DNA of 32,905 bases from an uncultured Gemmatimonadaceae bacterium (GCA_964459705.1 CAYWNR010000002.1:1-32905), one strand, 5' to 3'; counted from the first letter of the stretch, positions 1-28,943 are shown. Numbers and translations are program-made. The notes: generated by a model from the letters alone, not told the origin.

Positions 1-2720
1 CGGCGCGCGAGCGCGGATACCTTTCCGCCCTGCTCGCGTCGGCACCCTCGGCGATTGCGACGGTGGATGGAGCCGGCATCGTCAAGGACATCAATCCCGC
101 GTTCACGCAGCTCTTCGGGTACAGCGTGGAAGAAGCGCTGGGGAGGCAGCTGGACGATCTCGTGGTGCCGCCCGAAGCGATGGCGGAAGCCAAGGTGCTC
201 GAAAGCCGCGCGCTCGGAGGTGCCGGCACGGTCGCCGCGGAGGTGGATCGGCGACGCAAGGACGGGACGACCGTACCGGTGCGGGTGTCGGCTGCCCTCG
301 TGCGCGGGATCAAGGACGTCACGCTCTTCGTGCTGTACGACGATGTCACCGCCACGCGGCGCGCGCAGGTAGCCCTGCGCGAGGCGGAACGCCAGTACCG
401 GGAGATGGTGGAGTCGGCGTCCGATCTGGTGTGGCAGGTGGATCCGGAAGGGCGCTGGGTGTTCCTCAATGCCGCGGCCCGGACCATCTACGGCGCCGAT
501 CCGGAGCAGCTAATCGGCCGGCCGTTTGCGGACCAGGTGGAGCCGGAGTACCGAGAGCGCGACGTCGCCCGCATCGGGCACGTGCTGCGGGGCGAGGAGC
601 TGTCGGACTACGAGACGATCCACGTCGACGTGAACGGCGTGCGGCGCCATCTCTCGTTCGCGGCCCGTCCCATGCGTAGCGTGCATGGGAACGTCCTGGG
701 GGCGCATGGTACGGCGCGGGATGTCACGGAGCGCGCCCAGGCACGCGAGGCGCTCGTCGAAGCCCGTGAGGCGGCGGAACGCGTTGCGCAGTTGCGCAGC
801 GCGTTCGTCGCCAATATGAGCCACGAGCTCCGGACGCCGCTGCACGGCATCCTCGGCCTGGTGGATCTCCTCCTCGACAGTGATCTGACGCCCGATCAGC
901 GCCGTTCCGCGGAGCTTGTCCACAACTCCGGCGAGGCCCTGCTCCGCATCATCGATGACATCCTGGATTTCTCGAAGATCGAGGCCGGGCGCCTGGAGCT
1001 GGAGGCGATTCCGTTCGACCTCAACGGGCTCGTGGAGTCGACCGCACGGCTCCTTGCCGTGAAGGCCGCGTCCCGCGGGATCGAGGTGCTGGTGGATTCG
1101 GCGGCCGACCTCCCGCGCACGGTCGTCGGCGATGCCGGTCGCCTGCGGCAGGTGCTGACGAACCTGATGGGCAACGCGATCAAGTTCACGAACGAGGGCG
1201 AGATCGTGATCACGGTTACGCGCGTGGGAGGCACCGAGGCGCTCCCCGAATTGCGCTTCGCGGTCCGCGACACGGGCATCGGCATCCCTCCGGACCGTCT
1301 CGAAGCCATCTTCGAGGAGTTCACGCAGGCGGACGTCTCGACGAGCCGGACCTACGGCGGTACCGGTCTCGGGCTGGCCGTGTCACAGCGCCTCGTTGGC
1401 ATGATGCAGGGGCGACTGGCCGTAAGCAGCGAGCTGGGGAAGGGCAGCGAGTTCAGTTTCGTCGTGCCACTCGCGGTGAAGGAGGTCGAGACTTCAGCCC
1501 CGTCCGCCGGACCGCTCCCTACCCTCCCTCCTGGGCGAAACGTGCTCGTCGTCGACGACAGTGCCTCCAATCGCCGCATCGTGCGCGAAATGCTCCGCTT
1601 TGCGGGGATGCGCGTGGACGAAGCGGATGGGGCCGCGACCGCGCTCGAGCGCCTACGCGCCGCCGCGGCGGACGGGAAACCGCACGATGTGATGGTGTTC
1701 GATGGGCATATGCCGGGGGAGGATGGGTTTGCCCTCGCCGCTAGGGTCCGCGCCGACCCGGTGCTCGCCGATACGCACATGATCTTGCTGACGTCGGCAG
1801 CGCAACGTGGCGACGGACAGAAGTGTCGCGATCTGGGCATCGACGGATACCTCACCAAGCCCGTCGCGCGCGTGGAGCTGTTGGAGGCGGTGAGCGCCGT
1901 GCTCGGCGGAGTGACGGCGAAACAGCCCGATCCGCTGGTGACCCGGTACTCCATGCAGGAAAATCGCCGCCGGCTCCGTGTGCTGGTGGCGGAGGACAAC
2001 CTCGTCAATCAGCACGTGGTGGCGGCGCTGCTCAGGCGCCGGGGGCATGACGTCGAGATGGTCGAGAATGGGAGGCTGGCCTTCGAGGCCGTCCGCGACA
2101 AGAAGTTCGACGTGGTGTTGATGGACGTGCAGATGCCGGAAATGGATGGCTGGACGGCCACCCGAAAGATCAAGGACTTGCCCGGGCGGGCGGATCTCCC
2201 CATCGTGGCGGCCACGGCGCATGCCCTTCCCGAGGACCGGGAACGGTGCCTGGCCGTTGGGATGGTTGGTTGCGTGGTGAAGCCGTTCCGGCCGCACGAG
2301 CTCTTCGCGGTGCTGGAAGGATGGGGTGGGCCCGCGGAGGCGCCGGAGGAACGCGACGACCAGCCCGTGGTGGACCTCGCCGCCGTGCGCCAGGCAATGC
2401 GAGAGGCCGGAGCCGAGGACATCGTGGACGACCTCGTCCGGACCTTCCTGGATGACGCCCCGAACCGCCTCACGGCGATCGACGGCGCGGTGGCGGCCGG
2501 CGACGTTCCCGAGGTGGGCAGGGCGGCGCACTCTTACAAGTCCGCCGCGGGCGCCATTGGCGCTCGGCGGCTCGCGGAGGCGTTGCGCGCTCTCGAGATG
2601 GCGGGCAAGGAAGGGAACGCGGCGGCCATCACGCCCCTGGTGGCCGACGTCCGGAGCGCTCACGACGCGGTGCTCGCATACCTGACGCCCGAGATGGAGC
2701 ACGCGAAACATGCTGAGTGA
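1..2720 (+). CDS. Hybrid sensor histidine kinase (PAS-PAS-HisKA-HATPase_c-REC-REC-Hpt), 5' end cut by the window edge
   Basis: The frame is open from nt 3 (ARERGYLSALLASAPSAIATVDGAG...), so the listed start at 63 is internal. H-box SHELRTPLHGILG. N-box NLMGNAIKFT. G-boxes DTGIGI and GGTGLGLAVS. Two receivers: VLVVDDSASN..FDGHMPGEDG..LTKPV and VLVAEDNLVN..MDVQMPEMDG..VVKPF. C-terminal Hpt motif HSYKSAAGAIGA. Confidence 0.9.
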   Translation, partial: ARERGYLSALLASAPSAIATVDGAGIVKDINPAFTQLFGYSVEEALGRQLDDLVVPPEAMAEAKVLESRALGGAGTVAAEVDRRRKDGTTVPVRVSAALVRGIKDVTLFVLYDDVTATRRAQVALREAERQYREMVESASDLVWQVDPEGRWVFLNAAARTIYGADPEQLIGRPFADQVEPEYRERDVARIGHVLRGEELSDYETIHVDVNGVRRHLSFAARPMRSVHGNVLGAHGTARDVTERAQAREALVEAREAAERVAQLRSAFVANMSHELRTPLHGILGLVDLLLDSDLTPDQRRSAELVHNSGEALLRIIDDILDFSKIEAGRLELEAIPFDLNGLVESTARLLAVKAASRGIEVLVDSAADLPRTVVGDAGRLRQVLTNLMGNAIKFTNEGEIVITVTRVGGTEALPELRFAVRDTGIGIPPDRLEAIFEEFTQADVSTSRTYGGTGLGLAVSQRLVGMMQGRLAVSSELGKGSEFSFVVPLAVKEVETSAPSAGPLPTLPPGRNVLVVDDSASNRRIVREMLRFAGMRVDEADGAATALERLRAAAADGKPHDVMVFDGHMPGEDGFALAARVRADPVLADTHMILLTSAAQRGDGQKCRDLGIDGYLTKPVARVELLEAVSAVLGGVTAKQPDPLVTRYSMQENRRRLRVLVAEDNLVNQHVVAALLRRRGHDVEMVENGRLAFEAVRDKKFDVVLMDVQMPEMDGWTATRKIKDLPGRADLPIVAATAHALPEDRERCLAVGMVGCVVKPFRPHELFAVLEGWGGPAEAPEERDDQPVVDLAAVRQAMREAGAEDIVDDLVRTFLDDAPNRLTAIDGAVAAGDVPEVGRAAHSYKSAAGAIGARRLAEALRALEMAGKEGNAAAITPLVADVRSAHDAVLAYLTPEMEHAKHAE

Positions 2721-4806
2721 AACGGGTCGCCTGCATTGGCTGGTGACGCTGGTCGAGCACCTCGGTCATCCGGCGAGCACGATGGGGGACGTCAGTGCCG
2801 ACCTGCCACTCGCGGACGCGTGGGCCGCCATCACCGAGAAGACGGGCGTGGTAGACGACGACCTCGTGCGGGCGGTGGCCGGGCACTTCCGGCTCGGGGT
2901 CGCGGACATGACGGACGCACAGGAGCGAGCGCTCAAGCTCCTTCCGGAGGCGGTTGCCAGGCGATACCGCGTGTTCCCCCTGCGCGAGACCGACCGCGAC
3001 CTGGTCGTGGCGACCGGAGACCCCACGGACTACGAGTTGGAGCAAGTGCTCGGGTTCGCGTCCGGGCGCCGGCCCGTGTTCGAGATCGCCGCGCCGGCCG
3101 CGATCATCAAGGCGATTGACGAGCACTACGCGCCCGACCGGATCGTCGAGGGTCTGCTTCAGGCCGTAGACGATACCCAGGTCGAGCGCGTAAACGTCGT
3201 GGACGAGCAGGTCGCGAAGGCGGTGGCTGCCACCGAGGCGGGCGCGGCACCGGTTGTGAAGCTGACCAACGTGATCCTCCGGTCGGCGGTCGAGCAGCGG
3301 GCCAGCGACATCCATATCGAACCGGGGCGGCATGGGGGCCACGTTCGGCTCCGCGTGGACGGCGTGCTTCGCGAGCACATGCCGCTCCCCATGCCCGCCC
3401 TCAATCGCGTCGTCTCACGGATCAAGATCATCGGCGGGTTGGATATTGCGGATCGGCTCCGCCCGCAAGACGGACGCACCCGCATTCGCATCCACGACCG
3501 GGTGTATGATTTGCGCATCTCGACCGTGCCGACCCGCGATTCCGAGAAGGCGGTCCTTCGCATTCTCGACCCGGAAGGGTCGCTCGGGCTCGACGACCTG
3601 CAACTGCCTCGGGACGAGCTGGCCCGGCTCCGCCGGCTGATCGGCTTCCGTGACGGGATCGTGCTCGTGACTGGGCCGACGGGTTCGGGCAAGACCACGA
3701 CCCTCTACGCGGCCCTGCGGGAGATCGCCACCGGCGAGGTCAACATCATGACCGTCGAGGACCCCGTCGAGTACGAGCTCGCGAGCATTACGCAGATCCA
3801 GGTGGAGACCAAGCGCGGCGTGACCTTCGCCAGCGCGTTGCGCGCCATCCTCCGCCAAGATCCCGATGTCATTCTAGTGGGCGAGATCCGCGATCTGGAG
3901 ACCGCCGAGATCGCGGTGCAGGCGGCGCTCACCGGGCACCTGGTGCTGGCGACGCTCCACGCGAACGACGCCACGGGCGCCGTCACCCGGCTCGTGGATC
4001 TCGGGGTGGACCGCGCCGTCATTGGTGATGCCTTGCGGGGCGCCCTGGCGCAACGGCTGGGGCGCCGTGTGTGTGCGCAATGCTCAGCGCCCGTGTCGCC
4101 GGACACGATCTCCGAACACGAAGCGTCGCTTGCCGAGAGCTACGGCGTCGCCCCGGTCGTGCGCGCGGTCGGGTGCCCCCAGTGTGGTGGCACCGGGTAC
4201 CGTGGCCGCGTGGCGATCATCGAGCTCATCGCCATGACCAAGGAGTTGCGTGGGCTGATCGCAAGCGGCGTCTCCGCGGCCGAGCTTCATCGCGCGGCCG
4301 TTGCGGCGGGTATGCGGCCGCTACAGGAAGCCGGCTTGGAGCGTGTACACGCGGGCATGACTACCCTCGAGGAGATCGAGCGGGTGCTGGGCGACGTGGT
4401 CGAAACGGCGCCGCTCGCGGGAGACATGCCCCGCGTGCTGCTCGTGGACGACGACGGCGTGATCCGTACCCTGGCGCGCGGGTTGCTCGAGAAGAACGAG
4501 TTCCAAGTCGCCGAGGCCCGTGACGGGCTCGCCGCACTGGAGCGCCTCGACGGCGCCGAACGGTTCGACCTCGTCGTCCTCGATTTGGAGATGCCGCGTC
4601 TGGACGGCCGGGAGACCCTGCGACGCATTCGCGGGAACGTAGTGACCGCGGCACTCCCGGTGATCGTGTTGACGGGATCCGAGGACGAATCCCTCGAGAT
4701 CGACTTGATGGAGGCAGGAGCCGACGACTACATCCGGAAGCCGCTGGACCCGGCACGTTTCCTGGCCCGCGTGAGAGGCGCATTGCGGCGGGCCGGCACC
4801 GCCTGA
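2710..4806 (+). CDS. GspE/PilB-family type II secretion / type IV pilus assembly ATPase with N-terminal T2SSE_N domain and a fused C-terminal response-regulator receiver domain
   Basis: Walker A GPTGSGKTTT. Asp/His box region (EDPVEY, LVGEIRD, TGHLVLATLHAND). Tetracysteine CAQC..CPQCGGTGYRGR. The last ~125 aa are a canonical REC (VLLVDDDG, VVLDLEMPRLDG, VIVLTGS, YIRKPL). The ATG at 2710 overlaps the kinase stop by 11 nt. An alternative ATG at 2782 (MGDVSADL) is possible. Confidence 0.9.
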   Translation: MLSETGRLHWLVTLVEHLGHPASTMGDVSADLPLADAWAAITEKTGVVDDDLVRAVAGHFRLGVADMTDAQERALKLLPEAVARRYRVFPLRETDRDLVVATGDPTDYELEQVLGFASGRRPVFEIAAPAAIIKAIDEHYAPDRIVEGLLQAVDDTQVERVNVVDEQVAKAVAATEAGAAPVVKLTNVILRSAVEQRASDIHIEPGRHGGHVRLRVDGVLREHMPLPMPALNRVVSRIKIIGGLDIADRLRPQDGRTRIRIHDRVYDLRISTVPTRDSEKAVLRILDPEGSLGLDDLQLPRDELARLRRLIGFRDGIVLVTGPTGSGKTTTLYAALREIATGEVNIMTVEDPVEYELASITQIQVETKRGVTFASALRAILRQDPDVILVGEIRDLETAEIAVQAALTGHLVLATLHANDATGAVTRLVDLGVDRAVIGDALRGALAQRLGRRVCAQCSAPVSPDTISEHEASLAESYGVAPVVRAVGCPQCGGTGYRGRVAIIELIAMTKELRGLIASGVSAAELHRAAVAAGMRPLQEAGLERVHAGMTTLEEIERVLGDVVETAPLAGDMPRVLLVDDDGVIRTLARGLLEKNEFQVAEARDGLAALERLDGAERFDLVVLDLEMPRLDGRETLRRIRGNVVTAALPVIVLTGSEDESLEIDLMEAGADDYIRKPLDPARFLARVRGALRRAGTA

Positions 4807-4825
4807 AAGGGAGGCCGACGAGCTC

Positions 4826-5305
4826 ATGACCGACCAAGTGATTCCCCCTGACGACGAGTCCGCAGCAAAGGACTACGTCGCCGATATCCTCAAGCAGGAC
4901 GCCGCCCAGCGAGCGTCCGCTCCCGTCCGCCCAGTTCCGCGCACACAGCTCGGCCGGTGGTTGGTCGTGCTCGCGCCGGTGTTCGTCGCGCTCACTGCCT
5001 GGAACGTGATCCGGCTGACCAGGTCGCCGGAGGTGGTAACCCAGGCGGAGGAGGCCGCCGCGACCCGCTTCTCGATCTACCTCGTGGCCCAAGAAATCGA
5101 GGCCTATCGGCGGGAGCACGGCGTGCTGCCGCCCTCCCTGGAGGAGATCAACGCGGACATCGAGGGAGTCACGTTCGCGCCGGTGGATACCGGCTACGTG
5201 CTGTCGGGGACGGTGGCGGGTGAGACCATCACGTACCGCTCGGGAGCCGACCTGACGCCGTTCTGGACTGCCTATGATGCCCTGCCGCAAGGAGGTGCCC
5301 GATGA
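4826..5305 (+). CDS. Hypothetical single-pass membrane protein (N-in, about 95 aa extracytoplasmic domain)
   Basis: A GGGAGG Shine-Dalgarno lies about 11 nt upstream of the ATG. There is one hydrophobic helix, LGRWLVVLAPVFVALTAWNVI. The stop overlaps the next start as ATGA. I recognise no family. The segment AYRREHGVLPPSLEEI resembles the y..G.yP..L motif of pseudopilins, but there is no prepilin leader. Confidence 0.6.
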   Translation: MTDQVIPPDDESAAKDYVADILKQDAAQRASAPVRPVPRTQLGRWLVVLAPVFVALTAWNVIRLTRSPEVVTQAEEAAATRFSIYLVAQEIEAYRREHGVLPPSLEEINADIEGVTFAPVDTGYVLSGTVAGETITYRSGADLTPFWTAYDALPQGGAR

Positions 5306-5754
5306 ACCGTCGCGGGTTCACCATGATCGAGTTGCTGGTGGTCCTTACCATCCTCGGTATCCTGGCCAACCTCGCGGTTCCCCTGGTTGGGCAGGCGAAA
5401 CGCAAAGCACAGGCGGTCCAAGTGCTCGCGGACCTACATGCCGTGACGGTCGCGGCCCACGATCAGTTCGCCGACAACGGCACCTACCCGTCCAATGGGA
5501 AGTGGGGTCAAGTCCCCGTCGAGTTCGAGGCGGCGTTGCCGGACGGGTTCCAATTCACACGCGACGGCATCGAATACCGCTGGCGCCGCTTCGGCCTGGC
5601 GAACGGGCTTCCCAAGAACAAGAAGCAAACGCAGATCCTCGGCTTGTCGGTGCGCGCGAAGAAGGACAAGCCGCTGATCGCGGCGGTGCAGGGGCTCTAT
5701 AAGGGCGAGTTAACGAGCATCTCGGCCACGAGCATCACCTTCGTGATTGACTAG
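5302..5754 (+). CDS. Prepilin-type N-terminal cleavage/methylation domain protein (type IV pilin / T2SS pseudopilin-like)
   Basis: The class III signal MNRRG|FTMIELLVVLTILGILANLAVP has the conserved Gly-1, Phe+1 and Glu+5. The ATGA overlap with the upstream ORF suggests translational coupling. Confidence 0.85.
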   Translation: MNRRGFTMIELLVVLTILGILANLAVPLVGQAKRKAQAVQVLADLHAVTVAAHDQFADNGTYPSNGKWGQVPVEFEAALPDGFQFTRDGIEYRWRRFGLANGLPKNKKQTQILGLSVRAKKDKPLIAAVQGLYKGELTSISATSITFVID

Positions 5755-5843
5755 CGCCGCTAAGCCGACGCCATACCGTCCCGGCGAGCGCCGCGCGCTG
5801 TCAGCTGAGCTGCCGCGCTACCGTCGGTCGTCCCCAATCGATA

Positions 5844-5901
5844 ACTGACCGTTGGTCAGTCCCATGCCGGACCGGAGCGCCATCTACATGACCAGAGGTC
5901 A
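5844..5901. repeat. Two copies of the palindrome TGACC-N3-GGTCA (ACTGACCgttGGTCAGT at 5844-5860; TGACCagaGGTCA at 5889-5901)
   Basis: Read directly from the sequence. The centres are about 43 bp apart in the convergent gap between the pilin gene and the CDF gene. The second copy abuts the CDF stop codon (TAA, 5903-5905). Confidence 0.5.
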
Positions 5902-5902
5902 G

Positions 5903-6835
5903 TTACTGGTCGATGTGGTTGCCGCCTGCGGAACGGCGGTCGAGCGGCTCATCGGCGAAGGACGCCGGGTCCTCGATCGGCTCGAGGTGCGTGAAGACCG
6001 TGCTGTCCGGCAGCGCTGAGCGCACATCGCCCTCAATTCGCTCCAAGAGATCATGGCCGCGCTGCACCGACCAGTCGCCCGGGACCAAGACATGGAAGCT
6101 GACGAACCGCCGCCGCCCGGCCTGCCGCGTGCGTAACGCGTGGTAGCGGGCGCCATCGGCGCTGTAGCGTTCCAGCACGGAGACGATGGCTCCGCGTGCG
6201 TCCCCGGGGAGCGCGGTGTCGAGCAGACCGAGCGCCGAGCCCCTGAGCAGCGAGATCCCCGTCGCGATAATGTGAACGGCCACCGCTATCGCGACGAGCG
6301 GGTCGAGGATGCGCCAGCCGGTCAGTCCGGCAAGGCCGACCCCGACGATCACGCCACCCGATGTCCAGACATCCGTCATCAAGTGCTTGGCGTCGGCGTC
6401 GAGCACGATGGAGCGATACCGGCGACCCGCTCGCACCAGCATCTGCGCGGTGACGAGATTGATCACCGCCGCGACCGCCGCCACGGCGAGTCCGAGGCCG
6501 GCCTGTTCCAGCGGCTGCGGTGAGAGGAGCCGGCGGGCGGCCGCGTAGGCGATGCCGCCGGCGGCGACGAGAATCAGCCCCCCCTCGAAACCGCTCGAGA
6601 AATACTCGACCTTCGTGTGTCCGTACGCATGGTCTTCGTCCGCAGGCTGCTCGGCGATCCAGAGTGCGAGCAGGGCAACCCCGGCGGCGAGCAGATTCAC
6701 GACACTCTCGAGCGCGTCGGACAGCAGGGCCACGGACCCGGTGAGCGCGTAGGCGCCCCCCTTGAGGCCGATCGTGAGCGTGGCGGCCAGGAGGGAAACG
6801 AGGGCATACCGTTCGAGCCGCGGAGCGTCCGTCAT
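5903..6835 (-). CDS. Cation diffusion facilitator (CDF) family divalent-metal efflux transporter
   Basis: Typical CDF core: [41 protein letters not shown], and a C-terminal cytoplasmic domain ([20 protein letters not shown]). I place the start at the ATG at 6835 ([10 protein letters not shown]). It forms an ATGA overlap with the upstream hexosaminidase stop. The longer ORF to 6874 would overlap that gene. Confidence 0.85.
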
Positions 6836-9105
6836 CGGCGGCGGTACAGCCACTCCGCGGGGATGGGTCCCCATACGCCGTCCCGGAGCACACGCAGCTC
6901 GAGCCCGCGGTCGCCACCGCCCTGGAAGTACAGCACCTCGAACGTGTGGAGCCCGGTCGCGAGGGCGATACTACCGCGCCGCTCCAGCATCCCGTGCGGT
7001 CCGTCATTGTCGACCACGGTCTCACCGCCGATCTGCAGGACACCGCCGTCATCGGTGGCCAGCGCGAATTCGTACACGCCGTCGGCGGGCGCCAGCAGGT
7101 AGCCAGAAAACCGCACGCCGAACTGTTCGGGCCGCTCCTCGCCCGTCAGCTCGACGCCGGTGGCCGCGCCACGTCGGACCGGCGCGAACGACGGTACCTG
7201 GCTCGCCCGGCGGAGCCGTGCCTCATGGTAGCTGTAGGTCAGCCCCGGGGCGAGCGTTGCGCGGTCCACCCGCGCGGGCGGCTGGAGCGTGGCTCGCCGG
7301 AACCAGGCGCTCCGCACTGGACCCAATCGGGCGTTCGGGAGCACGAGGCGCGCCGTGACGCGGACGCCGCTGTCGCCAAGCCCGACCTGGAATGGGGTCT
7401 CATAGAGGCCCGCGGCATGCTCGGAGCCGGCGTCGAGGGCGTACAGGACGCGCGCCCGTGGAATCGGGGAACTGAGCGTCACGGTGACGGAGTCGCCAAG
7501 CACGAGCCGGTCCCCCTCGAGACCCGCGACATCGGGGATGCGGTAATTCACCCCCAAGCGATCGAGCTGCTCGAGCTGCGCCGGCAGACGACGCAGGAAG
7601 TCGGCGGAGTCCCGGCGCTCAGCCGGCGTCCAGGTGATCTCCGCGAGCGCGAGCATGCGCGGGAACGCCATGTACTCGACCTGCTCCGGAGACGTGATGT
7701 ACTCCGTCCAGACGTTCGCCTGGGCTCCGAGCACGTGATGGGCTTCCGCGTCGGACAACGCTTCCGGAACGGGTTCGAAGCCATAAACCCGTTCGACCGG
7801 AGTGAAGCCACCGATGGCGAGCGGCTCGGTCTCCTGCGGGCCCTGATAGTGATCGAAGTACAATTGGCTCCCCGGCGTCATGATCACATCGTGGCCCTGT
7901 TGCGCCGCCTCGATCCCGCCGGCCGTGCCCCGCCAGGACATGACCGTCGCCTCCGGAGCGAGCCCGCCCTCGAGAATTTCGTCCCACCCGATCAGTCGGC
8001 GATCGTGCGCGATGAGGAAGGCCTCGATGCGTCTGACGAAGTAGCTTTGCAGCTCCGCCTCGTCGCGCAAGCCCTCACGCTGAATGACCTCCTGCGCAAC
8101 CGGACTTTCCTTCCAGCGGGTTTTCGGGACCTCGTCGCCTCCGATGTGGATATAGCGCGACGGGAAGAGATCCATGACCTCCGTCAGCACGTCCTCGAGG
8201 AAGGCGAAGGTCCGCTCACTCGGGCAGTAGATGTCCTCGGTGACGCCCCACGTGGTCCACACGGCGAACGGACCGGGCGTGCAGGCCAGCTCCGGGTAGG
8301 CGGCGAGGGCGGCCACGGCGTGTCCGGGGAGCTCGATCTCGGGGATGACGGTCACGAAGCGTTGCTTCGCGTACGCAACGATCCGCCGGATGTCCGCCTG
8401 GGTGTAAAACCCGCCGTAGGGCTCGCCATCGCCTTCATACGGATTGAGCTGCTTGGCACGCACCGTCTCGCGCCGCCATGCCCCAACGGAGGTGAGCCGC
8501 GGGTACTTCTTGATCTCGATGCGCCATCCCTGGTCGTCGGTCAGGTGCCAGTGGAACGTGTTGAGCTTGTAGCGGGCGAGCAGGTCGATGTACCGCTCGA
8601 TGAACGCCACCGGAAACAGGTGGCGGCTGACGTCCAGATGCATCCCACGATACGGGAACCGGGGTGCGTCCTCGATCCGGACGCTGGGCACCCGGCCCGA
8701 CCCGCCGGGCGGCAGGAGTTGGCGCAGGGTCTGGAGGCCGTAGAAGATCCCCGCCGGGCTTCCTGTGACGGAGAGCACATTAGCGCCGGCCTCGAGGCGG
8801 TATCCTTCTGGGTGTATCGTGGCTCCGGAGTCGAGCACCAGCCGGAGCGTTGGCCGCGGACCGGTGCGCCCTGGGGGGAGGGCCGCGTTCGTCCCTTGGG
8901 ACAAGATGGCGGCCGCCAGGCTACCAAGCCGGCGGAGCCCGGTGTCGGTTGAGTCCGACAAGACCACAACCACCCCGGCGCCCGCCTCGAACGGCGGACC
9001 CGGCAGCCATCTTACGGCGACCGGCTGCGGGACCAGAGATGGCAATGCCGGCGGCGTGGAATCGCCGCCGGTCCAGGCGAGGAGGAGCAGTAGGCGGGTC
9101 AGCAT
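6832..9105 (-). CDS. Secreted GH20 beta-N-acetylhexosaminidase with C-terminal PA14 domain
   Basis: Signal peptide [16 protein letters not shown]20 catalytic region [33 protein letters not shown]. The C-terminal [40 protein letters not shown] is PA14-like. Confidence 0.9.
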
Positions 9106-9201: not shown

Positions 9202-9570
9202 ATGCGGCTCTATCACCGAACGAACATCGCCGAGGCGGTGGACATCAGCCGGACCGGATTCAAGGACGAACGGTGGTCGTTCGATGCGCGCGATCGGGAC
9301 GGTGACGATGTGAAGCGAACTGGGGTCTGGCTGACGGATCGACCCCTGAGTGAAGCCGAAGGTCCGCGTGGGGATGCGCAACTCGAGGTCGAGGTCGACC
9401 TCGGTGAGGAGACACTCGAGGCATTCGAGTTAGCCGATATATTCTGGGATGTGCGCTTGTTCGTCGTGCCGGCGGAAGTCCTGAATCCGCGAGCGCGGGT
9501 GCGCATTCTGGAGGTGGATCCCCGCACGTCGTGGTTTCACGACACGCGGCGGGCCGAAGAGCAAGGCTGA
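9202..9570 (+). CDS. Hypothetical protein (122 aa)
   Basis: A GGAGGG Shine-Dalgarno lies 5 nt upstream of the ATG. The composition looks coding-like. No family recognised. The N-terminus reads RLYHRTNIAEAVDISRTGF. Confidence 0.5.
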   Translation: MRLYHRTNIAEAVDISRTGFKDERWSFDARDRDGDDVKRTGVWLTDRPLSEAEGPRGDAQLEVEVDLGEETLEAFELADIFWDVRLFVVPAEVLNPRARVRILEVDPRTSWFHDTRRAEEQG

Positions 9571-9629
9571 AGGGCGGCGGATCGCCCCAACGATGTTCTG
9601 AGTCACGTACCATTTCCGGGTTCTGCGCT

Positions 9630-10481
9630 ATGGGCAACTACCGATTGGTGGTCTCGAATCCTCCGCAGCTCGATGTCAGTTCCGACCGAGCGGCGCCCCT
9701 CCTGGGACTGACGCCCGAACAGTTCGAGGCGAAGGTTCGCTACGGCGTGCCGGAGATTTGGTTCGCCCATCCCGACGGCGAACGCGCGGGAGACGTCGCG
9801 CGCGCCCTGACGGAAGCCGGATGTCGGGTCGCCTTGTTCGACAGCGGCGATATCACGACCATCCCGGGGCGAAACCGGGTTCGCTCGTTTTCGTTCACGG
9901 ACCGCGGGCTCACGGCCCACGCCGACACCGGGGATACGGAGGTCGAGTACGACGCGCCCGTCGACGCGGTCTTCTGCCGCCCGCGGGAGAGCTCACCGGA
10001 TCTCGGGGCGGGTTCCGCACGGCGGAGCAGGTCGAGCTCCTTCTTCTCCCTCAAGGATCGGCTGACCGAAGCGAGTCCGACGAGCGCGGACTTGGGGACG
10101 CCGGACAGTGACACCATCCCGTTTTTCGATATCTACGTGCCGGCCGGCGGCAAGGTGCAGCGCTTCACGGTGCAACAGAACGCGGTGAACTTCTCCGGCC
10201 TGGGCCGAGTCCAACCGCGCGCCGCGGCCAACATGGAGGCGCTGGTGGGCAGTTGTGAAGATCGGTTTGGCGCGGAACGGGTCGACCGCCGACTGGTGGG
10301 GATGCGGCTTCGGCACCGGAGCAGCAAGCGGGCGCCGGGCTCCGAACATCGGCGGGGGTTCTCGTACGCGAGCCCAGGTCTGCTGGCCTTGCTCGCGGCT
10401 CTGGACCCGGCGCTCGCCAGTGTCAGCCAGGCGGAGCTCTCCACTCGGCTGGCGTACCTGACGCATCGCCAAACGTCGTAG
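9630..10481 (+). CDS. Hypothetical protein (283 aa)
   Basis: The ORF is open from 9531, but the first 33 codons are Arg/Gly-rich and overlap the previous gene. I chose the ATG at 9630 (MGNYRLVVSNPP). It has two globular-looking halves joined by a Ser/Arg-rich linker. No motifs recognised. Confidence 0.45.
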   Translation: MGNYRLVVSNPPQLDVSSDRAAPLLGLTPEQFEAKVRYGVPEIWFAHPDGERAGDVARALTEAGCRVALFDSGDITTIPGRNRVRSFSFTDRGLTAHADTGDTEVEYDAPVDAVFCRPRESSPDLGAGSARRSRSSSFFSLKDRLTEASPTSADLGTPDSDTIPFFDIYVPAGGKVQRFTVQQNAVNFSGLGRVQPRAAANMEALVGSCEDRFGAERVDRRLVGMRLRHRSSKRAPGSEHRRGFSYASPGLLALLAALDPALASVSQAELSTRLAYLTHRQTS

Positions 10482-11381: not shown

Positions 11382-11468
11382 GAGGGTGGGAGGAGCGGGA
11401 GACGCGGCAGTGGACCTGTGACCCCACGCGCATCCCGCGGGGCGTCAACTCCCGCTTCTGCCGCCCTC
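11382..11468. repeat. Long imperfect inverted repeat (20-bp arms, about 47-nt spacer)
   Basis: GAGGGTGGGAGGAGCGGGAG (11382-11401) pairs with CTCCCGCTTCTGCCGCCCTC (11449-11468), with one mismatch and two G:T positions. It sits between the YkoF-like gene and the GH57 remnant. Confidence 0.5.
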
Positions 11469-11563
11469 CCTCTCACGTGGAGACTGTCACGCTCGCGCGA
11501 CCGAGGGAGGCGGGCCAGCGGAACACCACCGCCGTTCCCTGGCGCATCCGCTCGAACCCGCGT

Positions 11564-11728
11564 CGGCCCGGACACGTGCAGCGCCATGGGGAACGCGTCT
11601 CGGTCGGTGAGCGCCGCGAGGAAGGGGAGGTAGACGTCCTCGACGTGCTGCTGGAACACGTGGTCGAAATTCCCCACGGGTTGATGGACGTGGATACCGA
11701 GGACGAGGTGCACCGGTTCCAACGTCAC
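11564..11728 (-). pseudogene. N-terminal remnant (about 55 codons) of a GH57 alpha-amylase / 4-alpha-glucanotransferase
   Basis: MTLEPVHLVLGIHVHQPVGNFDHVFQQHVEDVYLPFLAALTDRDAFPMALHVSGP matches the GH57 N-terminus (..GIHNHQPLGNF..VF....Y.PF........HFSGPLLEW). Similarity stops right after HVSGP. The rest of the listed ORF is Arg/Pro-rich and runs antisense into the YkoF-like gene. Neither of the other two minus frames continues the homology. Confidence 0.6.
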
Positions 11729-11816
11729 GCGGAGCCCTGGTAGTTGGCGATGGCGGACCTATGCGGGAGCCACCTCGGAACGTGGCTGTGGGGTGCCAAC
11801 ACGAGACCCATCGACT

Positions 11817-13316
11817 TCAGGCTGTCGGGGCGCGGGCCGCGCAGGCGCGAAGATACGCGGCCTGATAGCGTCCCGCCGACTGGCGCCAGCTGTGGTCGAG
11901 GCGCATCGCGTGACGCTGGAGCCGATCCCAGGTGGGGCGGTCGTGATACGTGGCGATCGCGCGGCTGATGGCCTGCTCGAATGCGCCGGCGGTGTAGGCG
12001 TCGAACAGGAAGCCGGACGACCCATCGGTCACCGTGTCGCTCAGCCCGCCGACCCGGCGGGCGACGGGCAGGGCCCCGTAGCGCTGGGCCCGCATTTGGG
12101 TCAACCCGCACGGCTCATACTGGGACGGCATGAGCAGGAGATCGGCGCCCGCGAGGAGGCGGTGCTCCGCGCGTTCGCTGAAATCAAGGGGTACCGCGAC
12201 GCGATCCGGTGCGCGCTTGGCAAGCGCGACCAGCGCTTGCTCGTAGCGCTTCTCGCCGCGGCCCAGAAAGATGTATTGGGCGTCGGCGTCCAACAGGTGG
12301 TCGTCGGCGAGGACGAGGTCCAGCCCTTTCTGCCCCACCATCCGCGCGGTCATGGCCACGAGTGGGGTGCGCGACCGTTGGGGCATGCCGTACCGCCGTT
12401 GCTGGGCACGCTTGCAGCGGGATTTTCCCCCCAGAGCATCCGGTCCGAAGGTGGCGGTCGGAAACGGATCGGTGGCCGGATTCCAGAAGTCGTCGTCGAT
12501 ACCGTTCAGGACCCCGAGGAACCGGTCACCCATGGCCGCGTAGTGGTCGTGGAGCCCGAACCCCCCGTCCGGAGTTCGCAGCTCGGCGGCGTGCGTGGGG
12601 CTGACCGTGGTCGCAAGATCGCAGAACGCGAGGCCGCCCTTCAGGATGTTCACATGCCCGTACCACTCGAGCAGGCGCCAGTCATAGAAGCTCGCGGGCA
12701 GCCCGAGGTCGGCGAGCAGGTCGGGCCGGAAGTGACCCTGGAAGGCGGCATTGTGAACCGTGATGACGGTCCCGAGACGATCGTAGAACGGCTGTCCGGC
12801 GAAATGATGCCGCAGGAAGATGACCGAGAACGTCGTGTGCCAATCGTGGACGTGCAGGACCGCGGCATCGGGGGCGATCAACGGGAGCGCGTCGAGCGCC
12901 GCGCGGCAGAAGAACGCAAACCGCTGCGGGTTGTCTGCGTAGTCCGTCCCCTCGCCGTAAACCTCGGGTCGGTCGAACCACGTCTCGTGCGCGATGAAGT
13001 AGACGTCGGGCGCCGCCTCCGCTCCGGTGTGTCGGTACAGGCGCGCCAGTTCCCGGCGCCACCCGACGGAGACGGTGAAGGGCTCCCCCACGGGTTCCAT
13101 GTCGGTCCCGCGGGCCCGCACCTGTCGATGTAGGGGGAGAATGACCGAAACCGGCTGGCCGGCGGAGACCTGATACTGGGCGAGCCCGCGAACGGCCTCC
13201 GCCAGGCCACCGGTGCGGGCGAAGGGCCAGTACTCCGCCACCAGATGCATGACTCGGCCACGGTCCGGAAGGGAAGGCAGTGGGGCGCGTACGACGGGGG
13301 TGGTGCGATGCGGCAC
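11817..13316 (-). CDS. glgA: Glycogen synthase (GT5, ADP-glucose type)
   Basis: The N-terminal E..PFARTGGLAEAV corresponds to the KTGGL motif. Also VHDWHT, GLTQMRAQRYGALPVARRVGGLSDTV. The canonical-looking start is the ATG at 13250 (MHLVAEYWP). The GTG at 13316 is the longest ORF. Confidence 0.9.
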   Translation of the reverse strand: MPHRTTPVVRAPLPSLPDRGRVMHLVAEYWPFARTGGLAEAVRGLAQYQVSAGQPVSVILPLHRQVRARGTDMEPVGEPFTVSVGWRRELARLYRHTGAEAAPDVYFIAHETWFDRPEVYGEGTDYADNPQRFAFFCRAALDALPLIAPDAAVLHVHDWHTTFSVIFLRHHFAGQPFYDRLGTVITVHNAAFQGHFRPDLLADLGLPASFYDWRLLEWYGHVNILKGGLAFCDLATTVSPTHAAELRTPDGGFGLHDHYAAMGDRFLGVLNGIDDDFWNPATDPFPTATFGPDALGGKSRCKRAQQRRYGMPQRSRTPLVAMTARMVGQKGLDLVLADDHLLDADAQYIFLGRGEKRYEQALVALAKRAPDRVAVPLDFSERAEHRLLAGADLLLMPSQYEPCGLTQMRAQRYGALPVARRVGGLSDTVTDGSSGFLFDAYTAGAFEQAISRAIATYHDRPTWDRLQRHAMRLDHSWRQSAGRYQAAYLRACAARAPTA

Positions 13317-13326
13317 GAAAGGACCT

Positions 13327-15525
13327 TCAGGCGGTGGGAGGATCCCCGTCCGGCGGCTCCCCGCGGATCGCGGGTACGTACGACTCTCGAACGTATTGCT
13401 GGACCATGCGCCGCGCGGTGAACTGCGACCCCGCTTCCCGGATGGCGTGCTTCATGTGATCGACCCAACCGGTGGGAATGCCGGCGTCATTGCGCCGGTA
13501 GAACAGCGGCACGATTTCGTCTTCAAGCAAGGTATACAGATGCTCCGCGTCGTGCGTGTCCGTACGTTCGTCCGTTGGCCGTGGGATGGCCCACCCGTTC
13601 CGGCCGGTCCATGCCTCCGCCCACCACCCGTCGAGCGTGCCGAGCTGGGGCACACCGTTGAGCCCCGCCTTCATACCGCTGGTGCCACAGGCCTCCATGG
13701 GCACGCGCGGCAGGTTCAACCACAGGTCCACGCTTTGCACGAGCCGGTGCGCCAGGTGCATCTCGTAGTCTTCGAGGAAGGTGATGCGTCCTTCGAATGA
13801 GGGATCTCGCGCGTATCCATACACCCGCTGCAGCAAGTGCTTGGCTGGATCGTCGGCGGGATGGGCCTTGCCGGCGAACACGATCTGGACCGGGTGGCGC
13901 GGATCGGTGACCAGACGCCGGAGTCGGTCCGGGTCCCCGAACACCAGATCCGCCCGCTTGTAGGTCGCGAACCGGCGCGCGAAGCCGATGGTGAGCGCGT
14001 CGGAGCTGAGCAGCGTGCCCGCCGCCACGAGGTGACCGGGTTCCTTCCATTGTTCGCGCCAGCGCCGCCGGGCCTCGTCGCGGATGAAATCCACCAGGTG
14101 CACACGCAACCGCGTATGCGCGCCCCAGAGCTGCGTGTCGTCGAGCGACAGGACGCCGTCCCACAGATTGTCGTCGTCGAGCCGCGCTCCCCAGTCTGCG
14201 CCCAGGTGGGACCCGAGCAGATCCATGATCTGGCGCGCCATCCACGTCGCGAGGTGGACGCCGTTCGTCACGTGGCCAATCGGGACGGCCGCACGCTCGC
14301 GGTCGGGCCACAGAGCGTGCCAGATGCGGCGCGTCTCTTCGCCATGCAAGGCGGAGACGCCATTCACGGCTCCCGCCAGGCGGATGGCCAGCGGAGTCAT
14401 GTGGAACAACCCGTGGTCTTCGACGGGATGCCGGCCGAGGCGGTAGACCACGTCCGGGTCCAGGCCCGACGACTGGCAGAAGGCGCGCAGGCAGTGCTCC
14501 ACCTGGTCTTGCGAGAAACGATCGTGCCCGGCGGGAACCGGGGTATGGGTCGTGAAGATGCTGCGCGCGCGGATGTCGGCGATTGCCGTATCCAGCGCTA
14601 CGCCCGTGCTGACCTGCTCGCGAAGCCGTTCCAGGAACATGAATCCTGCATGGCCCTCGTTCGCATGCCAGGCGGCGGGGTCGATGCCGAGGTGGCGGAG
14701 CACGCGGACGCCCCCGACACCCAACACCCATTCCTGGCGTAACCGCATCTCGGCGCCGCCGGCGTACAGCTTGTGGGTCAGCGCCTGATCTTCCGGACGG
14801 TTCCGCTCGAGATTCGTGTCGAGCAGATACAGGGGCACGGATCCCACGTGCATGAGCCACGCGCCGACGTGGACCTCACGGTCGAGGTACGGCACCGTCG
14901 CGAGATACGGACTGCCGGCCTCATCGAGCACCGGAAACAGCGGTGCGCGGCTCGGATCCACCGGGTCGTCCACGTCTTCCTGCCACCCGTCGAGCCGGAG
15001 CTGCTGGTCGAAGTACCCCTTGGTGTACATCAAGCCCACGCCGACCAACGGCACGCCGAGGTCGGACGCGGTCTTGCAGTGATCGCCCGCGAGAACGCCG
15101 AGGCCGCCCGAGTAGATCGGGACGGAGTTGTGCACGGCAAACTCCGCGCAGAAGTACGCAATGGGCCGCGCGTCGTCCGCCGGGAAATGTCGGCGGAACC
15201 ACGTGCCATCGCGTGTGAGGGCCCTGTCCAGGTCCGCGCGGGCCCGGTCGTAGAGCGCGAGGAACTCGGGGTCCTGGGCGCAGGCGGCCAGCCGCTCCGG
15301 CGAGGCCTGCTGGAGGGTCGCGATGGGGTTGTGGCGCAGCCGGCGCCAGAGCACCTCATCGATGTCGCGGAACAGGATGCGGGATTCCCGGCTCCAGCTC
15401 CACCACAGGTTCGTCGCGAGTCCCGTGAGGCCGGCCAGGCGGTCGGGCAGCACGGGGAAGTTGCCGGTAGTCATGGTGGCGGAAGCTAGCGGCTCGTCTG
15501 CGGGGTGCCAGCCGGGGGTCTGCAT
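13327..15525 (-). CDS. glgP: Alpha-glucan phosphorylase (GT35, short maltodextrin/glycogen phosphorylase type)
   Basis: NLWWSWS N-terminal motif, YFCAEFA..SGGLGVLAGDHCKTASDLGVPLVGVGLMY, and a PLP-site region EACGTSGMKAGLNG. An alternative ATG lies at 15474 (MTTGNFPVLP). Confidence 0.9.
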   Translation of the reverse strand: MQTPGWHPADEPLASATMTTGNFPVLPDRLAGLTGLATNLWWSWSRESRILFRDIDEVLWRRLRHNPIATLQQASPERLAACAQDPEFLALYDRARADLDRALTRDGTWFRRHFPADDARPIAYFCAEFAVHNSVPIYSGGLGVLAGDHCKTASDLGVPLVGVGLMYTKGYFDQQLRLDGWQEDVDDPVDPSRAPLFPVLDEAGSPYLATVPYLDREVHVGAWLMHVGSVPLYLLDTNLERNRPEDQALTHKLYAGGAEMRLRQEWVLGVGGVRVLRHLGIDPAAWHANEGHAGFMFLERLREQVSTGVALDTAIADIRARSIFTTHTPVPAGHDRFSQDQVEHCLRAFCQSSGLDPDVVYRLGRHPVEDHGLFHMTPLAIRLAGAVNGVSALHGEETRRIWHALWPDRERAAVPIGHVTNGVHLATWMARQIMDLLGSHLGADWGARLDDDNLWDGVLSLDDTQLWGAHTRLRVHLVDFIRDEARRRWREQWKEPGHLVAAGTLLSSDALTIGFARRFATYKRADLVFGDPDRLRRLVTDPRHPVQIVFAGKAHPADDPAKHLLQRVYGYARDPSFEGRITFLEDYEMHLAHRLVQSVDLWLNLPRVPMEACGTSGMKAGLNGVPQLGTLDGWWAEAWTGRNGWAIPRPTDERTDTHDAEHLYTLLEDEIVPLFYRRNDAGIPTGWVDHMKHAIREAGSQFTARRMVQQYVRESYVPAIRGEPPDGDPPTA

Positions 15526-17721: not shown

Positions 17722-17781
17722 GGGTTGCGGGTTGTGGTGGAATGAATGATGCTACGGTGTCCGAGGAGGTCGCAAGCCGTC

Positions 17782-18579
17782 ATGGGTTTTTCGCCGCAAC
17801 CGAATGCGTGGCAGTGTGGGCCGTACGCGCTCAAGTATGCGTTGCTGTCGCTCGCGATTCCAAGCGATGAGGCGGCGGTGACACGCGCCTCCGGCGCGAC
17901 CGAGCAGGGGACGGACGAGCGCGATCTCGATCGTGCGGCACGGCGGTATGGCTGCGTGCTCACGGTCGACCGGTGGCTCACCGAGGAAGACGCGCGCGTC
18001 GCCTTGCGTGACCATCTGGCGCGCCGCACGCCTGTGCTCCTGTGCGTCGACCAGTGGAACCATTGGATCGTTGCGGTCGGTGCCGAAGCGGATGTGGTGA
18101 TCGTGCTCGACAGCCGCAAGGCGGACGTGGTGCAAATCATCGATTGGAAGGCGCTGCTCGGGCGCGTCGCCTACCGCTCGGGCTCCGGCGCCGCTCTCTA
18201 CGATCTCCATCCGCTCGTGCCGACGCGCGTGCCGCTGGCCCGCGCGGAATTCTCGCGGGCCCGAGCGGAGTTCCTCTGCCGTCCGACCAGCCGCGCGCTG
18301 CGACGCTCCTGGGATCGCTACGTGCGTGCCCTCGTACCGTTCGCCCGGCCCCGCGGACCCCAGGCGGAATGGACCATGTTGTTGGGCAACGTCGTGCGCC
18401 AGCACACGCCTCGGGTGCTCGCCGACACCATGGAGCAGCGGCGCGCGCCGATGCGCGAGCACCTCACGCACGCGGCGTTCGTCGCCGATACCTACGCGCT
18501 CGAGGTCGGTCCGGACCAGACCGAGGCCGCACTTGCGGCCATGCGGCGCCTGGCGGACGCGGTGGTGCTGGCCGCCTGA
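17782..18579 (+). CDS. Cytoplasmic papain-fold cysteine peptidase-like protein (C39-like N-domain) with an uncharacterised helical C-terminal half
   Basis: A strong GAGGAGG Shine-Dalgarno lies 10 nt upstream of the ATG at 17782. QPNAWQCGPYAL (Gln/Cys), WNHWIVAVG (His) and VIVLDS (Asp) occur in the order expected for C39-like peptidases. No signal peptide. The C-terminal ~130 aa are unrecognised. Confidence 0.6.
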   Translation: MGFSPQPNAWQCGPYALKYALLSLAIPSDEAAVTRASGATEQGTDERDLDRAARRYGCVLTVDRWLTEEDARVALRDHLARRTPVLLCVDQWNHWIVAVGAEADVVIVLDSRKADVVQIIDWKALLGRVAYRSGSGAALYDLHPLVPTRVPLARAEFSRARAEFLCRPTSRALRRSWDRYVRALVPFARPRGPQAEWTMLLGNVVRQHTPRVLADTMEQRRAPMREHLTHAAFVADTYALEVGPDQTEAALAAMRRLADAVVLAA

Positions 18580-27655: not shown

Positions 27656-27743
27656 AAGTCATTCTACGGTACTCAGTTACGGCTTTACCAGGGGCGGCGT
27701 TCCGTCCTGTTTCGCGGACACTTCGCCCAGGGAGCGGAAACCC

Positions 27744-28169
27744 ATGGGAATGCACACGCACACCCGGCGGTGGACTCTGGACCTCGACGATGAGTTCGGC
27801 CACCGGGATATCACCGCCGAGCTTCACGAAGCTACGGAGGAGTCCGGAATCCACACGGGCATGCTGACGGCCCAGCTCGTTGGCTCCACCGGCGGGCTCA
27901 CCACCATCGAGTACGAGGCCGGAGCCCTCGCCGATCTGCGGCGGGCCCTCGATGCCGTGGCGCCACCGGACGCCGACTACGCCCACAACGCGCGCTGGGG
28001 CGACGGTAACGGGTTCTCCCACGTGCGATCCGCATTGCTGCGAACAAGCCTCACGGTGCCGATCGTGGAGGGACAGCTCATGCTCGGCACGTGGCAGCAA
28101 GTGGTCGCGATCAACTTCGACAATCGTCGCCGGCGGCGAGAGCTGGTGGTCGTCGCGGTTGGGGAATAG
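27744..28169 (+). CDS. yjbQ: YjbQ/UPF0047 family protein (secondary thiamine-phosphate synthase-like)
   Basis: DIT..L......SGI..G.L...V.GSTGGLTTIEYE.GAL.DL, the HN.RWGDGNGFSH.R..LL motif, GTWQ.V....FD. AGGGAG Shine-Dalgarno upstream. Confidence 0.85.
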   Translation: MGMHTHTRRWTLDLDDEFGHRDITAELHEATEESGIHTGMLTAQLVGSTGGLTTIEYEAGALADLRRALDAVAPPDADYAHNARWGDGNGFSHVRSALLRTSLTVPIVEGQLMLGTWQQVVAINFDNRRRRRELVVVAVGE

Positions 28170-28259
28170 GCCATTGCTCCCGCCGTACCTTCGGCTGTGG
28201 GCTCGCGATGCCGAACGGCGGTTTGGCGCGCCCGCGGTGGTACCCGTAGTTTCTCGCTC

Positions 28260-28853
28260 ATGACGATGAGCGATGTCGCCCCACGGTCCGCCGGCACCAA
28301 GCGGACGCTGTTGCGTCTCGCGCGGGCGGCGGTCGCGAGCAGGCTCGCGGGTGGACCGCCGCCGGCGTGGGATCGCGACGACGCGGCGCTCGCGGCGCTC
28401 GGCGCCGCGTTCGTGACCTTCCGCCGCCGCGGGAACGGTGAGCTTCGTGGCTGTCGGGGTGAGCTCGAGGCGCGCCGGGCGGTGGCGGAGTCGGTCCTGG
28501 AGGGAGCACTCGCCGCCGCGTTCCATGACCCGCGGTTCGCACCGGTGACGGCCGCGGAGCTTCCACTGCTGAGCATCGAGATCAGCGTCCTCACGCCGAT
28601 GGTGCCGGCCGCACCGGAGGACGTGGAGCCCGGCCTGCATGGCGTGCTGATCCGAGATCGCGGCCAGGGCGGGCTGCTGCTCCCGCAGGTGGCGACGGAG
28701 TTGGGCTGGAATCGGGAGCAACTGTTGCGGGGGGTGTGTCAGAAGGCGGGACTGCCACCGGACACGTGGCGTCAATCGCCCGACGCGACCCTGTTCGTGT
28801 TCGAGGCCGAAGTCTGGGGGGAGGAAGACGGTGACGCCGGGGAGCGGCCGTGA
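28260..28853 (+). CDS. AMMECR1 domain-containing protein
   Basis: GAAFVTFRR.G.LRGCRG, AAFHDPRFAPV, IEISVLTP, HGVLIRDRGQGGLLLPQVA. I chose the ATG at 28260. The listed GTG at 28197 adds an Arg-rich leader. Confidence 0.85.
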   Translation: MTMSDVAPRSAGTKRTLLRLARAAVASRLAGGPPPAWDRDDAALAALGAAFVTFRRRGNGELRGCRGELEARRAVAESVLEGALAAAFHDPRFAPVTAAELPLLSIEISVLTPMVPAAPEDVEPGLHGVLIRDRGQGGLLLPQVATELGWNREQLLRGVCQKAGLPPDTWRQSPDATLFVFEAEVWGEEDGDAGERP

Positions 28854-28943
28854 ATCGGCTTTGATGAAGCGATCCTCGTGAGCGCGCCCGCGAACGTGGG
28901 GTGGCAGACAGTTTCCGAGAAAAACAGTCGGCGTTACGTACGT

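Follow-up and report, generated by a model that had tools for sequence, protein, structure and literature searches.

The control of pilus and secretion motors has so far been understood in terms of cyclic di-GMP (c-di-GMP) binding, adaptor proteins and free CheY-like regulators, while in the NtrC/DctD class of proteins it is a receiver (REC) domain that controls the assembly or the activity of a ring ATPase. Two-component phosphorylation is known to act after translation on pilus extension motors: the CheY-like proteins PilG and PilH of the Pil-Chp system act on PilB in trans (PMC11656802), and in Synechocystis PixE and PixG bind PilB1, the receiver control of PilB1 by PixE likewise being exerted in trans (10.1101/2021.06.11.447907). 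The association of an MshEN domain with a receiver has been mentioned only in passing (Wang et al., 2016; PMC5013675); no study of receiver-fused PilB/GspE proteins was found in our full-text literature search, and a 2024 review of PilB regulation makes no mention of them. Type IV pilus genes have been reported across the Gemmatimonadota (PMC10581226). Here we describe a locus from this phylum, found at positions 1-5754 of a stretch of 32,905 nucleotides (nt) of an uncultured Gemmatimonadaceae bacterium (GCA_964459705.1, CAYWNR010000002.1:1-32905; "the window" denotes this whole stretch). It is an operon of a soil bacterium, consisting of four co-directional, translationally coupled genes that encode a hybrid kinase, a PilB/GspE-class ATPase with a fused receiver (ATPase::REC), a membrane protein of 159 residues (TM159) and a type IV prepilin (Table 1). 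With moderate confidence we read it as a phosphorelay-gated PilB/GspE-class motor, equipped with an optional dedicated pilin cassette and relying on core parts encoded elsewhere, and not as a complete machine. As in the PilG/PilH and PixE/PixG systems, two-component phosphorylation would control a pilus extension motor after translation; however, the receiver is here covalently fused to the motor, and it would be fed by the histidine phosphotransfer (Hpt) domain of a hybrid kinase instead of a CheA-type chemosensory system.

A relay leading from the kinase histidine to an internal aspartate, then to the Hpt histidine and finally to Asp625 of the ATPase receiver, which had been proposed in an earlier note on this DNA, is well supported, the direction of transfer being predicted from the sequence. 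The receiver pocket (DD580-581, D625, T655 and K677) is invariant in an alignment of 121 family members. An Hpt domain is found at most 1.3 kb from the ATPase core in 20 of 41 loci of the clade, as against none of 42 other PilB-like loci (profile domain map), and since many of the clade loci are cut by contig ends, the first of these counts is a lower bound. In addition, the kinase and ATPase genes are coupled here, and overlap or abut in the relatives. As the relay would end on the ATPase receiver, the ATPase would be a response regulator with a filament motor as its output. Two gene layouts recur in the clade. In the first, that of the window, a kinase ending in REC-REC-Hpt lies directly upstream of ATPase::REC; in the second, the kinase has no Hpt, and a small Hpt gene and a single-domain receiver gene follow ATPase::REC. 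Clustering of all flanking open reading frames (ORFs) showed that the only recurrent neighbours of ATPase::REC are kinase, REC, Hpt, TM159 and pilin families. These comparisons come from a scan of one genome per species, with about 42 ordinary PilB loci of other phyla as controls; genes in the fetched loci were called by a heuristic based on G+C content at third codon positions (GC3), and many of these loci end at contig edges.

The ATPase shares with the extension ATPases PilB, GspE and MshE an N-terminal GspE/PilB domain, the T2SSE core, Walker A and B motifs, Asp and His boxes and a tetracysteine. Residues 70-144 match Pfam MshEN, 176-558 T2SSE (E 1e-120) and 576-689 Response_reg (E 5e-29), and the best solved relative is PilB (5tsg, E 6e-115). 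The motifs read GPTGSGKT (Walker A), EDPVE (Asp box), GEIRD (Walker B) and TGHLVLATLH (His box); the core residues GPTGSGK, GEIRD and GH..TLH are near-invariant in the 121-member alignment, and the four cysteines of the zinc motif (CAQC at 455, CPQC at 489) are found in all 121 members. With the motifs of ATPase and receiver invariant or nearly so, both halves are under selection as working domains. Differently from PilB, GspE and MshE, the protein carries a canonical C-terminal receiver and no c-di-GMP motif, it falls below the cut-offs of both the GspE equivalog (TIGR02533, 508.8 bits against 630.25) and the PilB equivalog (TIGR02538, 488.2 bits against 675.65), and ATPase::REC has never been seen beside a platform gene, its neighbours being phosphorelay genes. 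The c-di-GMP motif, scored as the relaxed tandem 24-residue RLGxx... motif of Wang et al. (PMC5013675), is present in the N-domain of 0 of 121 family members, compared with 12 of 57 other PilB-like proteins. Input of c-di-GMP through MshEN was therefore rejected, and by this measure the MshEN match is a generic GspE/PilB N-domain and not a c-di-GMP site.

The architecture MshEN, T2SSE and Response_reg occurs in more than 120 clusters at 55-97% identity, the named ones being from Gemmatimonadota, and the genome scan yielded about 40 fused-receiver loci, most of them again from this phylum, with a minority from Terriglobia, Vicinamibacterales, a Burkholderiales metagenome-assembled genome (MAG), Thermodesulfobacteriota and Thermodesulfovibrio. 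Identity to the PilB-like ATPases of other phyla is around 40-45%. In a rough tree of the ATPase cores (neighbour-joining on BLOSUM distances) the REC-fused proteins of the Gemmatimonadota type form one clade, apart from the PilC-linked PilBs. This tree also disposed of one candidate control, locus L035, considered as an ordinary Gemmatimonadota PilB without PilC: it nests within the REC-fused clade and is thus a member that lacks the receiver. In the source databases these proteins bear generic labels, such as GspE/PilB-like plus CheY-like, and the ATPase of the window belongs to a large clade, drawn mostly from Gemmatimonadota, which is widespread but unstudied. Examples of MAGs and chromosomes with ATPase::REC are GCA_026004295.1 (BPIV01000001), CAVROI010000003, CAVWRM010000001 and, from Terriglobia, OZ252023.1. 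Some variants may be mentioned here. A Gemmatimonas sp. MAG (L014) shows the arrangement kinase-Hpt-ATPase::REC. In a Gemmatimonadales MAG (KatS3mg081; L006, 3122-6470), genes for GGDEF-REC, REC-HD-GYP and two single receivers lie upstream of kinase-ATPase::REC, and despite the neighbouring GGDEF-REC and REC-HD-GYP genes the N-domain of this ATPase lacks the c-di-GMP motif. Two ATPase::REC genes stand in tandem in L047 (7556-12121) and about 6 kb apart in L043 (3410-5536 and 11380-13719). In a member of the Margulisiibacteriota (L067, 10001-12041) a separate REC gene lies directly upstream of an ordinary PilC-linked PilB, an unfused version of the same pairing.

The frame of the kinase gene is already open at base 3 and continues beyond the left edge of the window, so that the N-terminus of the protein lies outside. 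The earlier note had read the domain order correctly, and a hidden Markov model search agrees that the kinase ends in REC-REC-Hpt and the ATPase in a receiver. The copy of the kinase gene in the window is truncated, full-length relatives (1108-1141 residues) having about 220 more residues at the N-terminus. The H-box SHELRTPL and the Hpt motif HSYKSAAG (HxxK) are visible in the translation, as expected of a hybrid kinase with an Hpt domain. The best NCBIfam matches are TorS, BarA and ArcB, all under the equivalog cut-offs, and with kinases of this type the protein shares the HisKA-HATPase-REC-Hpt layout and the His-Asp-His-Asp logic. It differs from them in having two internal receivers, in its uncharacterised N-terminal membrane domain, for which there is no Pfam match, and in its predicted terminal acceptor, which is an ATPase and not a transcription factor. 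In the L003 orthologue the additional N-terminal part contains several hydrophobic, apparently membrane-spanning segments and matches no Pfam family; because of these segments, the kinase is probably embedded in the membrane.

The close packing of the four genes for co-translation, also noted earlier, can be read directly from the DNA. The ATG of the ATPase gene (2710) sits inside the end of the kinase gene, whose TGA occupies 2718-2720, giving an overlap of 11 nt; this start is backed by the conservation of His-Trp-Leu at residues 9-11 (H in 102, W in 110 and L in 97 of 121 members). The ATPase stop codon (4804-4806) and the ATG of TM159 (4826) are separated by the short gap with its GGGAGG, and the TM159 stop and the prepilin start share the ATGA at 5302-5305, a junction preceded by AGGAGG at 5290-5295. 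As the same note had stated, the next gene is a convergent CDF transporter (5903-6874), and no gene for a platform protein, prepilin peptidase or secretin follows: a Pfam scan of the four genes and of the 20 other ORFs scanned found no T2SSF, Peptidase_A24, Secretin or PilMNO in the window.

Table 1. Coordinates of the features discussed; positions are those of the window, except for the last row, where they are those of locus L072.
Feature	Position (nt)	Strand	Basis or remarks
Hybrid sensor histidine kinase, C-terminal 905 residues	3..2720	+	Pfam and profile domain map
Kinase PAS	48-350		approximate
Kinase PAS	393-725		approximate
Kinase HisKA	795-989		approximate
Kinase HATPase_c	1128-1475		approximate
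Kinase REC1	1539-1904		approximate
Kinase REC2	1980-2315		approximate
Kinase Hpt	2430-2675		approximate
PilB/GspE-class ATPase with fused C-terminal receiver, 698 residues	2710..4806	+	Pfam, motifs, best solved relative
ATPase GspE/PilB N-domain	2917-3141		approximate
ATPase T2SSE core	3235-4383		approximate
ATPase REC	4435-4776		approximate
Asp625 codon, predicted phospho-acceptor	4582..4584	+	D in VVLDLEMP; D in 121/121 family members
Intergenic gap, ATPase to TM159	4807..4825	+	19 nt; GGGAGG ribosome-binding site at 4809-4814; read directly from sequence
TM159, bitopic membrane protein, 159 residues	4826..5305	+	cytoplasmic N-terminal helix, predicted transmembrane helix at about 4940-5023, periplasmic alpha+beta domain
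Type IV prepilin, 150 residues	5302..5754	+	leader MNRRG at 5302-5316; predicted cleavage before Phe6; Glu at +5
Example of a Desulfobacterota triad (L072)	4599-7709		PilB-like ATPase, membrane protein, pilin

The cleavage of class III leaders requires a prepilin peptidase, and the prepilin of the locus has such a leader: its N-terminus, MNRRG/FTMIELLVVLTILGILANLAVP (the slash marking the predicted cleavage site), shows a short basic leader, Gly at -1, Phe at +1, Glu at +5 and a hydrophobic alpha1-N, and matches N_methyl (E 3e-8) and TIGR02532 (36.3 bits against a cut-off of 16.3). It resembles that of GspG, with a score (44.8 bits) below the cut-off of the GspG equivalog (88.85). An AlphaFold2 (AF2) model (pLDDT 76) consists of a helix at residues 8-59 and four to five strands, and the top six fold matches in the PDB are all type IV major pilins (probability 0.82-0.97, E only 0.02-0.2).

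TM159 matches no Pfam or NCBIfam family. A profile search of 1.84 billion representatives returned 875 relatives, most of which are about 160 residues long; 259 fall below E 1e-10. A metagenome scan seeded with TM159 gave only five loci. Its AF2 model has a cytoplasmic helix, one transmembrane helix and a periplasmic part made of a helix and a three-stranded sheet, predicted with pLDDT above 90. In this architecture of a short cytoplasmic part, one transmembrane helix and a small periplasmic alpha+beta domain, and in the position of its gene between those of ATPase and pilin, TM159 is like GspL/GspM and PilN/PilO. It differs in having no detectable sequence similarity to them (hhalign scores of 11-14, which is background) and in a predicted fold that, though weakly, recalls the head of a pilin more than a ferredoxin-like fold. 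Two identities proposed for TM159 were rejected: that of PilN, PilO or PilM, for which the hhalign scores are at background, and that of a degenerate pilin paralogue, as neither the alignments with cognate pilins (hhalign P 0.017-0.1) nor the best PDB fold match, a type IV pilin (Foldseek E 0.23), reach significance, although a weak resemblance remains.

The genes for TM159 and the pilin always come as a pair, an obligate cassette that is frequently, though not invariably, linked to the relay. The pilin directly follows TM159 in every locus where downstream sequence is available, that is in 14 of 14 loci seeded with TM159 and in all those seeded with the ATPase. The cassette lies in an operon after ATPase::REC in the window and in L003, L004, L024, L088, L089, L097 and L098, upstream of ATPase::REC in L020, L027, L028 and L044, and convergent to kinase-ATPase::REC in L095. 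In L090 (6527-10935) and L093 (6477-11028) it follows a kinase that ends in Hpt, with no ATPase between them, and these two loci are either natural deletion variants or assembly artefacts; the N-terminus of TM159 also differs in L090. Finally, it is found alone among metabolic genes in L092, L094, L100 and L101. Since the cassette occurs without the ATPase, the pairing of motor and pilin is facultative.

Taken together, these observations can be accommodated by the following scheme for a phosphorelay-gated motor. The kinase, presumably membrane-embedded, would autophosphorylate on the HisKA histidine and pass the phosphoryl group to one of its two internal receivers and then to its Hpt domain, from which it would reach Asp625, in the ATPase's own receiver; a small protein made of a single receiver domain may act as a second acceptor in some relatives. 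Phosphorylation would switch the motor by altering hexamer assembly, inter-subunit closure or docking to a membrane partner, and would take over from the c-di-GMP input that N-domains of the MshE/PilB type use elsewhere. That it alters hexamer assembly or closure is suggested by analogy with NtrC/DctD proteins, whose logic of a receiver controlling a ring ATPase most likely applies here; those proteins, however, belong to another ATPase branch (AAA+ sigma-54 activators, as opposed to a PilT-like ASCE ATPase), have their receiver at the N-terminus and not at the C-terminus, and have transcription, not filament assembly, as output. The pilin of the cassette would be the substrate or filament subunit, cognate to TM159, and TM159 itself probably tethers the cytoplasmic motor to the membrane pilin, as GspL/GspM or PilN/PilO do. 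The platform protein, the prepilin peptidase and the outer-membrane conduit would most likely be supplied in trans, from elsewhere in the genome, making the module a signal-gated accessory motor with a dedicated pilin.

Several facts weigh against this scheme. In the majority of ATPase::REC loci no pilin lies within 10 kb, the pilin pair being present in only 8 of 41, and the cassette is found without the ATPase. Genes for platform protein, peptidase and secretin are absent from all of about 55 related loci, so that their use in trans is assumed; no significant homology links TM159 to known assembly proteins or to pilins; and where the gene order is ATPase::REC, Hpt, REC, the receiver of the ATPase might be an intermediate of the relay and not its terminal acceptor. 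Of the synteny anticipated by the earlier note, the link of kinase or Hpt with ATPase::REC holds across the clade, most ATPase::REC loci lacking the pilin pair. The note's view of the locus as a self-contained minimal filament unit could not be upheld, given the rarity of the pair, the occurrence of the cassette without ATPase and a leader that needs a peptidase absent locally. Its statement that the gene set is not that of a textbook type II secretion system (T2SS), type IV pilus (T4P), Tad or Com system does stand, as only the ATPase and one pilin are present here and the core parts are absent from both the window and its relatives.

One alternative, which we consider unlikely, is that the locus serves signalling and not assembly. 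ATPase::REC would then be a phosphate sink, an intermediate receiver or a signalling ATPase, and the pilin and TM159 would be ligands sensed by the polytopic kinase, in the way that PilA is by PilS. The loci with kinase, TM159 and pilin and no ATPase (L090, L093) fit such a role, as do the hydrophobic, apparently multi-pass N-terminal domain of the kinase orthologue and the fact that signalling genes are all that is conserved next to the ATPase; the order ATPase::REC, Hpt, REC, read in many loci, is that expected if the fused receiver feeds the Hpt. A signalling role of M. xanthus PilB in the control of exopolysaccharide has also been reported (PMC5544727). However, the invariance of the catalytic ATPase motifs and of the zinc-binding cysteines speaks for a functional motor, the ATPase gene is joined by translational coupling to those of TM159 and the pilin both here and in relatives, and a pure phosphate sink would have no need of a 570-residue ATPase.

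A second alternative is very unlikely in our judgement: an autonomous minimal filament or piston, in which ATPase, bitopic protein and pilin would build a short filament without a PilC/GspF platform, gated by the relay. It is kept as a rival because triads without PilC recur. The PilC profile gave no match in cis in any of the 41 clade loci, as against 26 ORFs in the other PilB loci, and the PilM, PilN and PilO profiles show the same pattern, being absent from the clade loci; these are ad hoc profiles from other phyla, that of PilC having been built from 23 ORFs of which one was verified as T2SSF, and the Pfam labels precomputed for nine database loci likewise show no T2SSF. Independently, six Desulfobacterota loci (L045, L050, L062, L064, L065 and L072) contain a PilB-like ATPase without receiver, a membrane protein of about 200 residues and a pilin, with no PilC, PilM, PilN or PilO within 10 kb. 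Their flanking genes code for a CHASE2 Ser/Thr kinase and a PAS-PAS protein, and their ATPases fall outside the PilC-linked clades in the rough tree. Their membrane protein has a B-box zinc finger, one transmembrane helix and a periplasmic domain, and can be aligned to the TM159 family along 101 collinear columns spanning the transmembrane helix and the periplasmic domain (hhalign score 26.6, P 0.002; 30 column shuffles gave at most 16.6, and PilM, PilN and PilO 11-15), which suggests a remote, as yet unproven, homology. To our knowledge, though, every characterised type IV filament system requires a platform protein and a prepilin peptidase. The standard cleavable leader of the pilin, the cassettes found far from any ATPase (those alone amid metabolic genes in L092, L094 and L100 must be served in trans) and the scarcity of pilins near ATPase::REC argue that the module is not self-sufficient. 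In its broadest form this proposal would make the locus one instance of a platform-independent, phosphorelay-gated device of at least two phyla, similar to a minimal type IV filament, in which a distinct PilB-like lineage, a bitopic partner (TM159 or the zinc-finger protein) and one pilin would form a signal-triggered piston or short fibre; we regard this as highly doubtful. In a variant of it, if true, the pilin pair would be a membrane signal read by the polytopic kinase, giving a post-translational feedback loop from the pilin pool to the motor.

There remains the ordinary explanation that we are dealing with the end of a conventional T4P or T2SS locus, or with four genes that are neighbours by chance, for which it could be said that the window starts within the kinase gene and that what lies upstream is outside it; it is rejected as having next to no likelihood, since no pilus genes are found within 10 kb upstream in syntenic relatives, the order of the four genes persists at ATPase identities from 100% to as low as 71%, and the link of kinase or Hpt with the ATPase holds across the clade. 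The identical sequence exists only on contigs of 5.8-6.3 kb, and the upstream region was for this reason viewed in relatives with 84% and 71% ATPase identity and in two further syntenic ones. Neither of the former pair has the conventional upstream locus that the earlier note had named as fatal to its reading, and pilC, pilD and secretin genes are absent from the 10 kb upstream in the syntenic relatives, so that the module is not the tail of such a locus. What is found there is a divergent ECF sigma unit (ECF sigma/CBM48) and a conserved secreted protein of 491-494 residues with a signal peptide and no Pfam match (L003 4500-5984, also in L004, L088 and L090), which could be an outer-membrane protein. 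The order then continues with the genes for the kinase of 1108-1141 residues, ATPase::REC, the homologue of TM159 and the pilin. In L003, the closest relative, a gene for a single-domain receiver (6266-6643) shares 4 nt with the start of the kinase gene; in the genome of the window, the counterpart would be expected immediately beyond the left edge, and the product is possibly a second acceptor or a phosphate sink.

Beyond the operon, the scan of 20 further ORFs across the remaining 27 kb of the window showed metabolic and housekeeping families only, and scans of the region for Rfam families, tRNAs and terminators gave nothing relevant. We also would like to point out a repeat in the 149-nt spacer between the pilin and CDF genes, where two near-palindromic copies of TAACTGACC...GGTCAGTTA occupy 5842-5905. 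The element comprises a 17-nt inverted repeat, 88% complementary, and an inner perfect hairpin of 7 nt, and the second copy overlaps the CDF stop codon; it might serve as a T-less bidirectional terminator or as an operator. Farther along the window lie a pair of glycogen synthase and alpha-glucan phosphorylase-like genes (11820-15525), a Lon-like protease with domains of the LonB/LonC type (29166-31763) and four sizeable ORFs without a Pfam match (9531-10478, 11384-11740, 17746-18576 and 27657-29060).

What the analysis offers is thus not a demonstrated new machine, but a clean system for direct two-component control of a PilT-like motor. A receiver fused to the motor, together with an adjacent Hpt domain, provides a simple and testable case of phospho-switching in a PilT-like hexameric ATPase, reduced to one kinase, one aspartate and one enzyme. 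A widespread two-gene cassette of a bitopic protein and a pilin, so far uncharacterised, is defined as well. Lastly, the triads without PilC in two phyla may either show in what way a core machine is shared by accessory motors or call into question whether the platform protein is indispensable.

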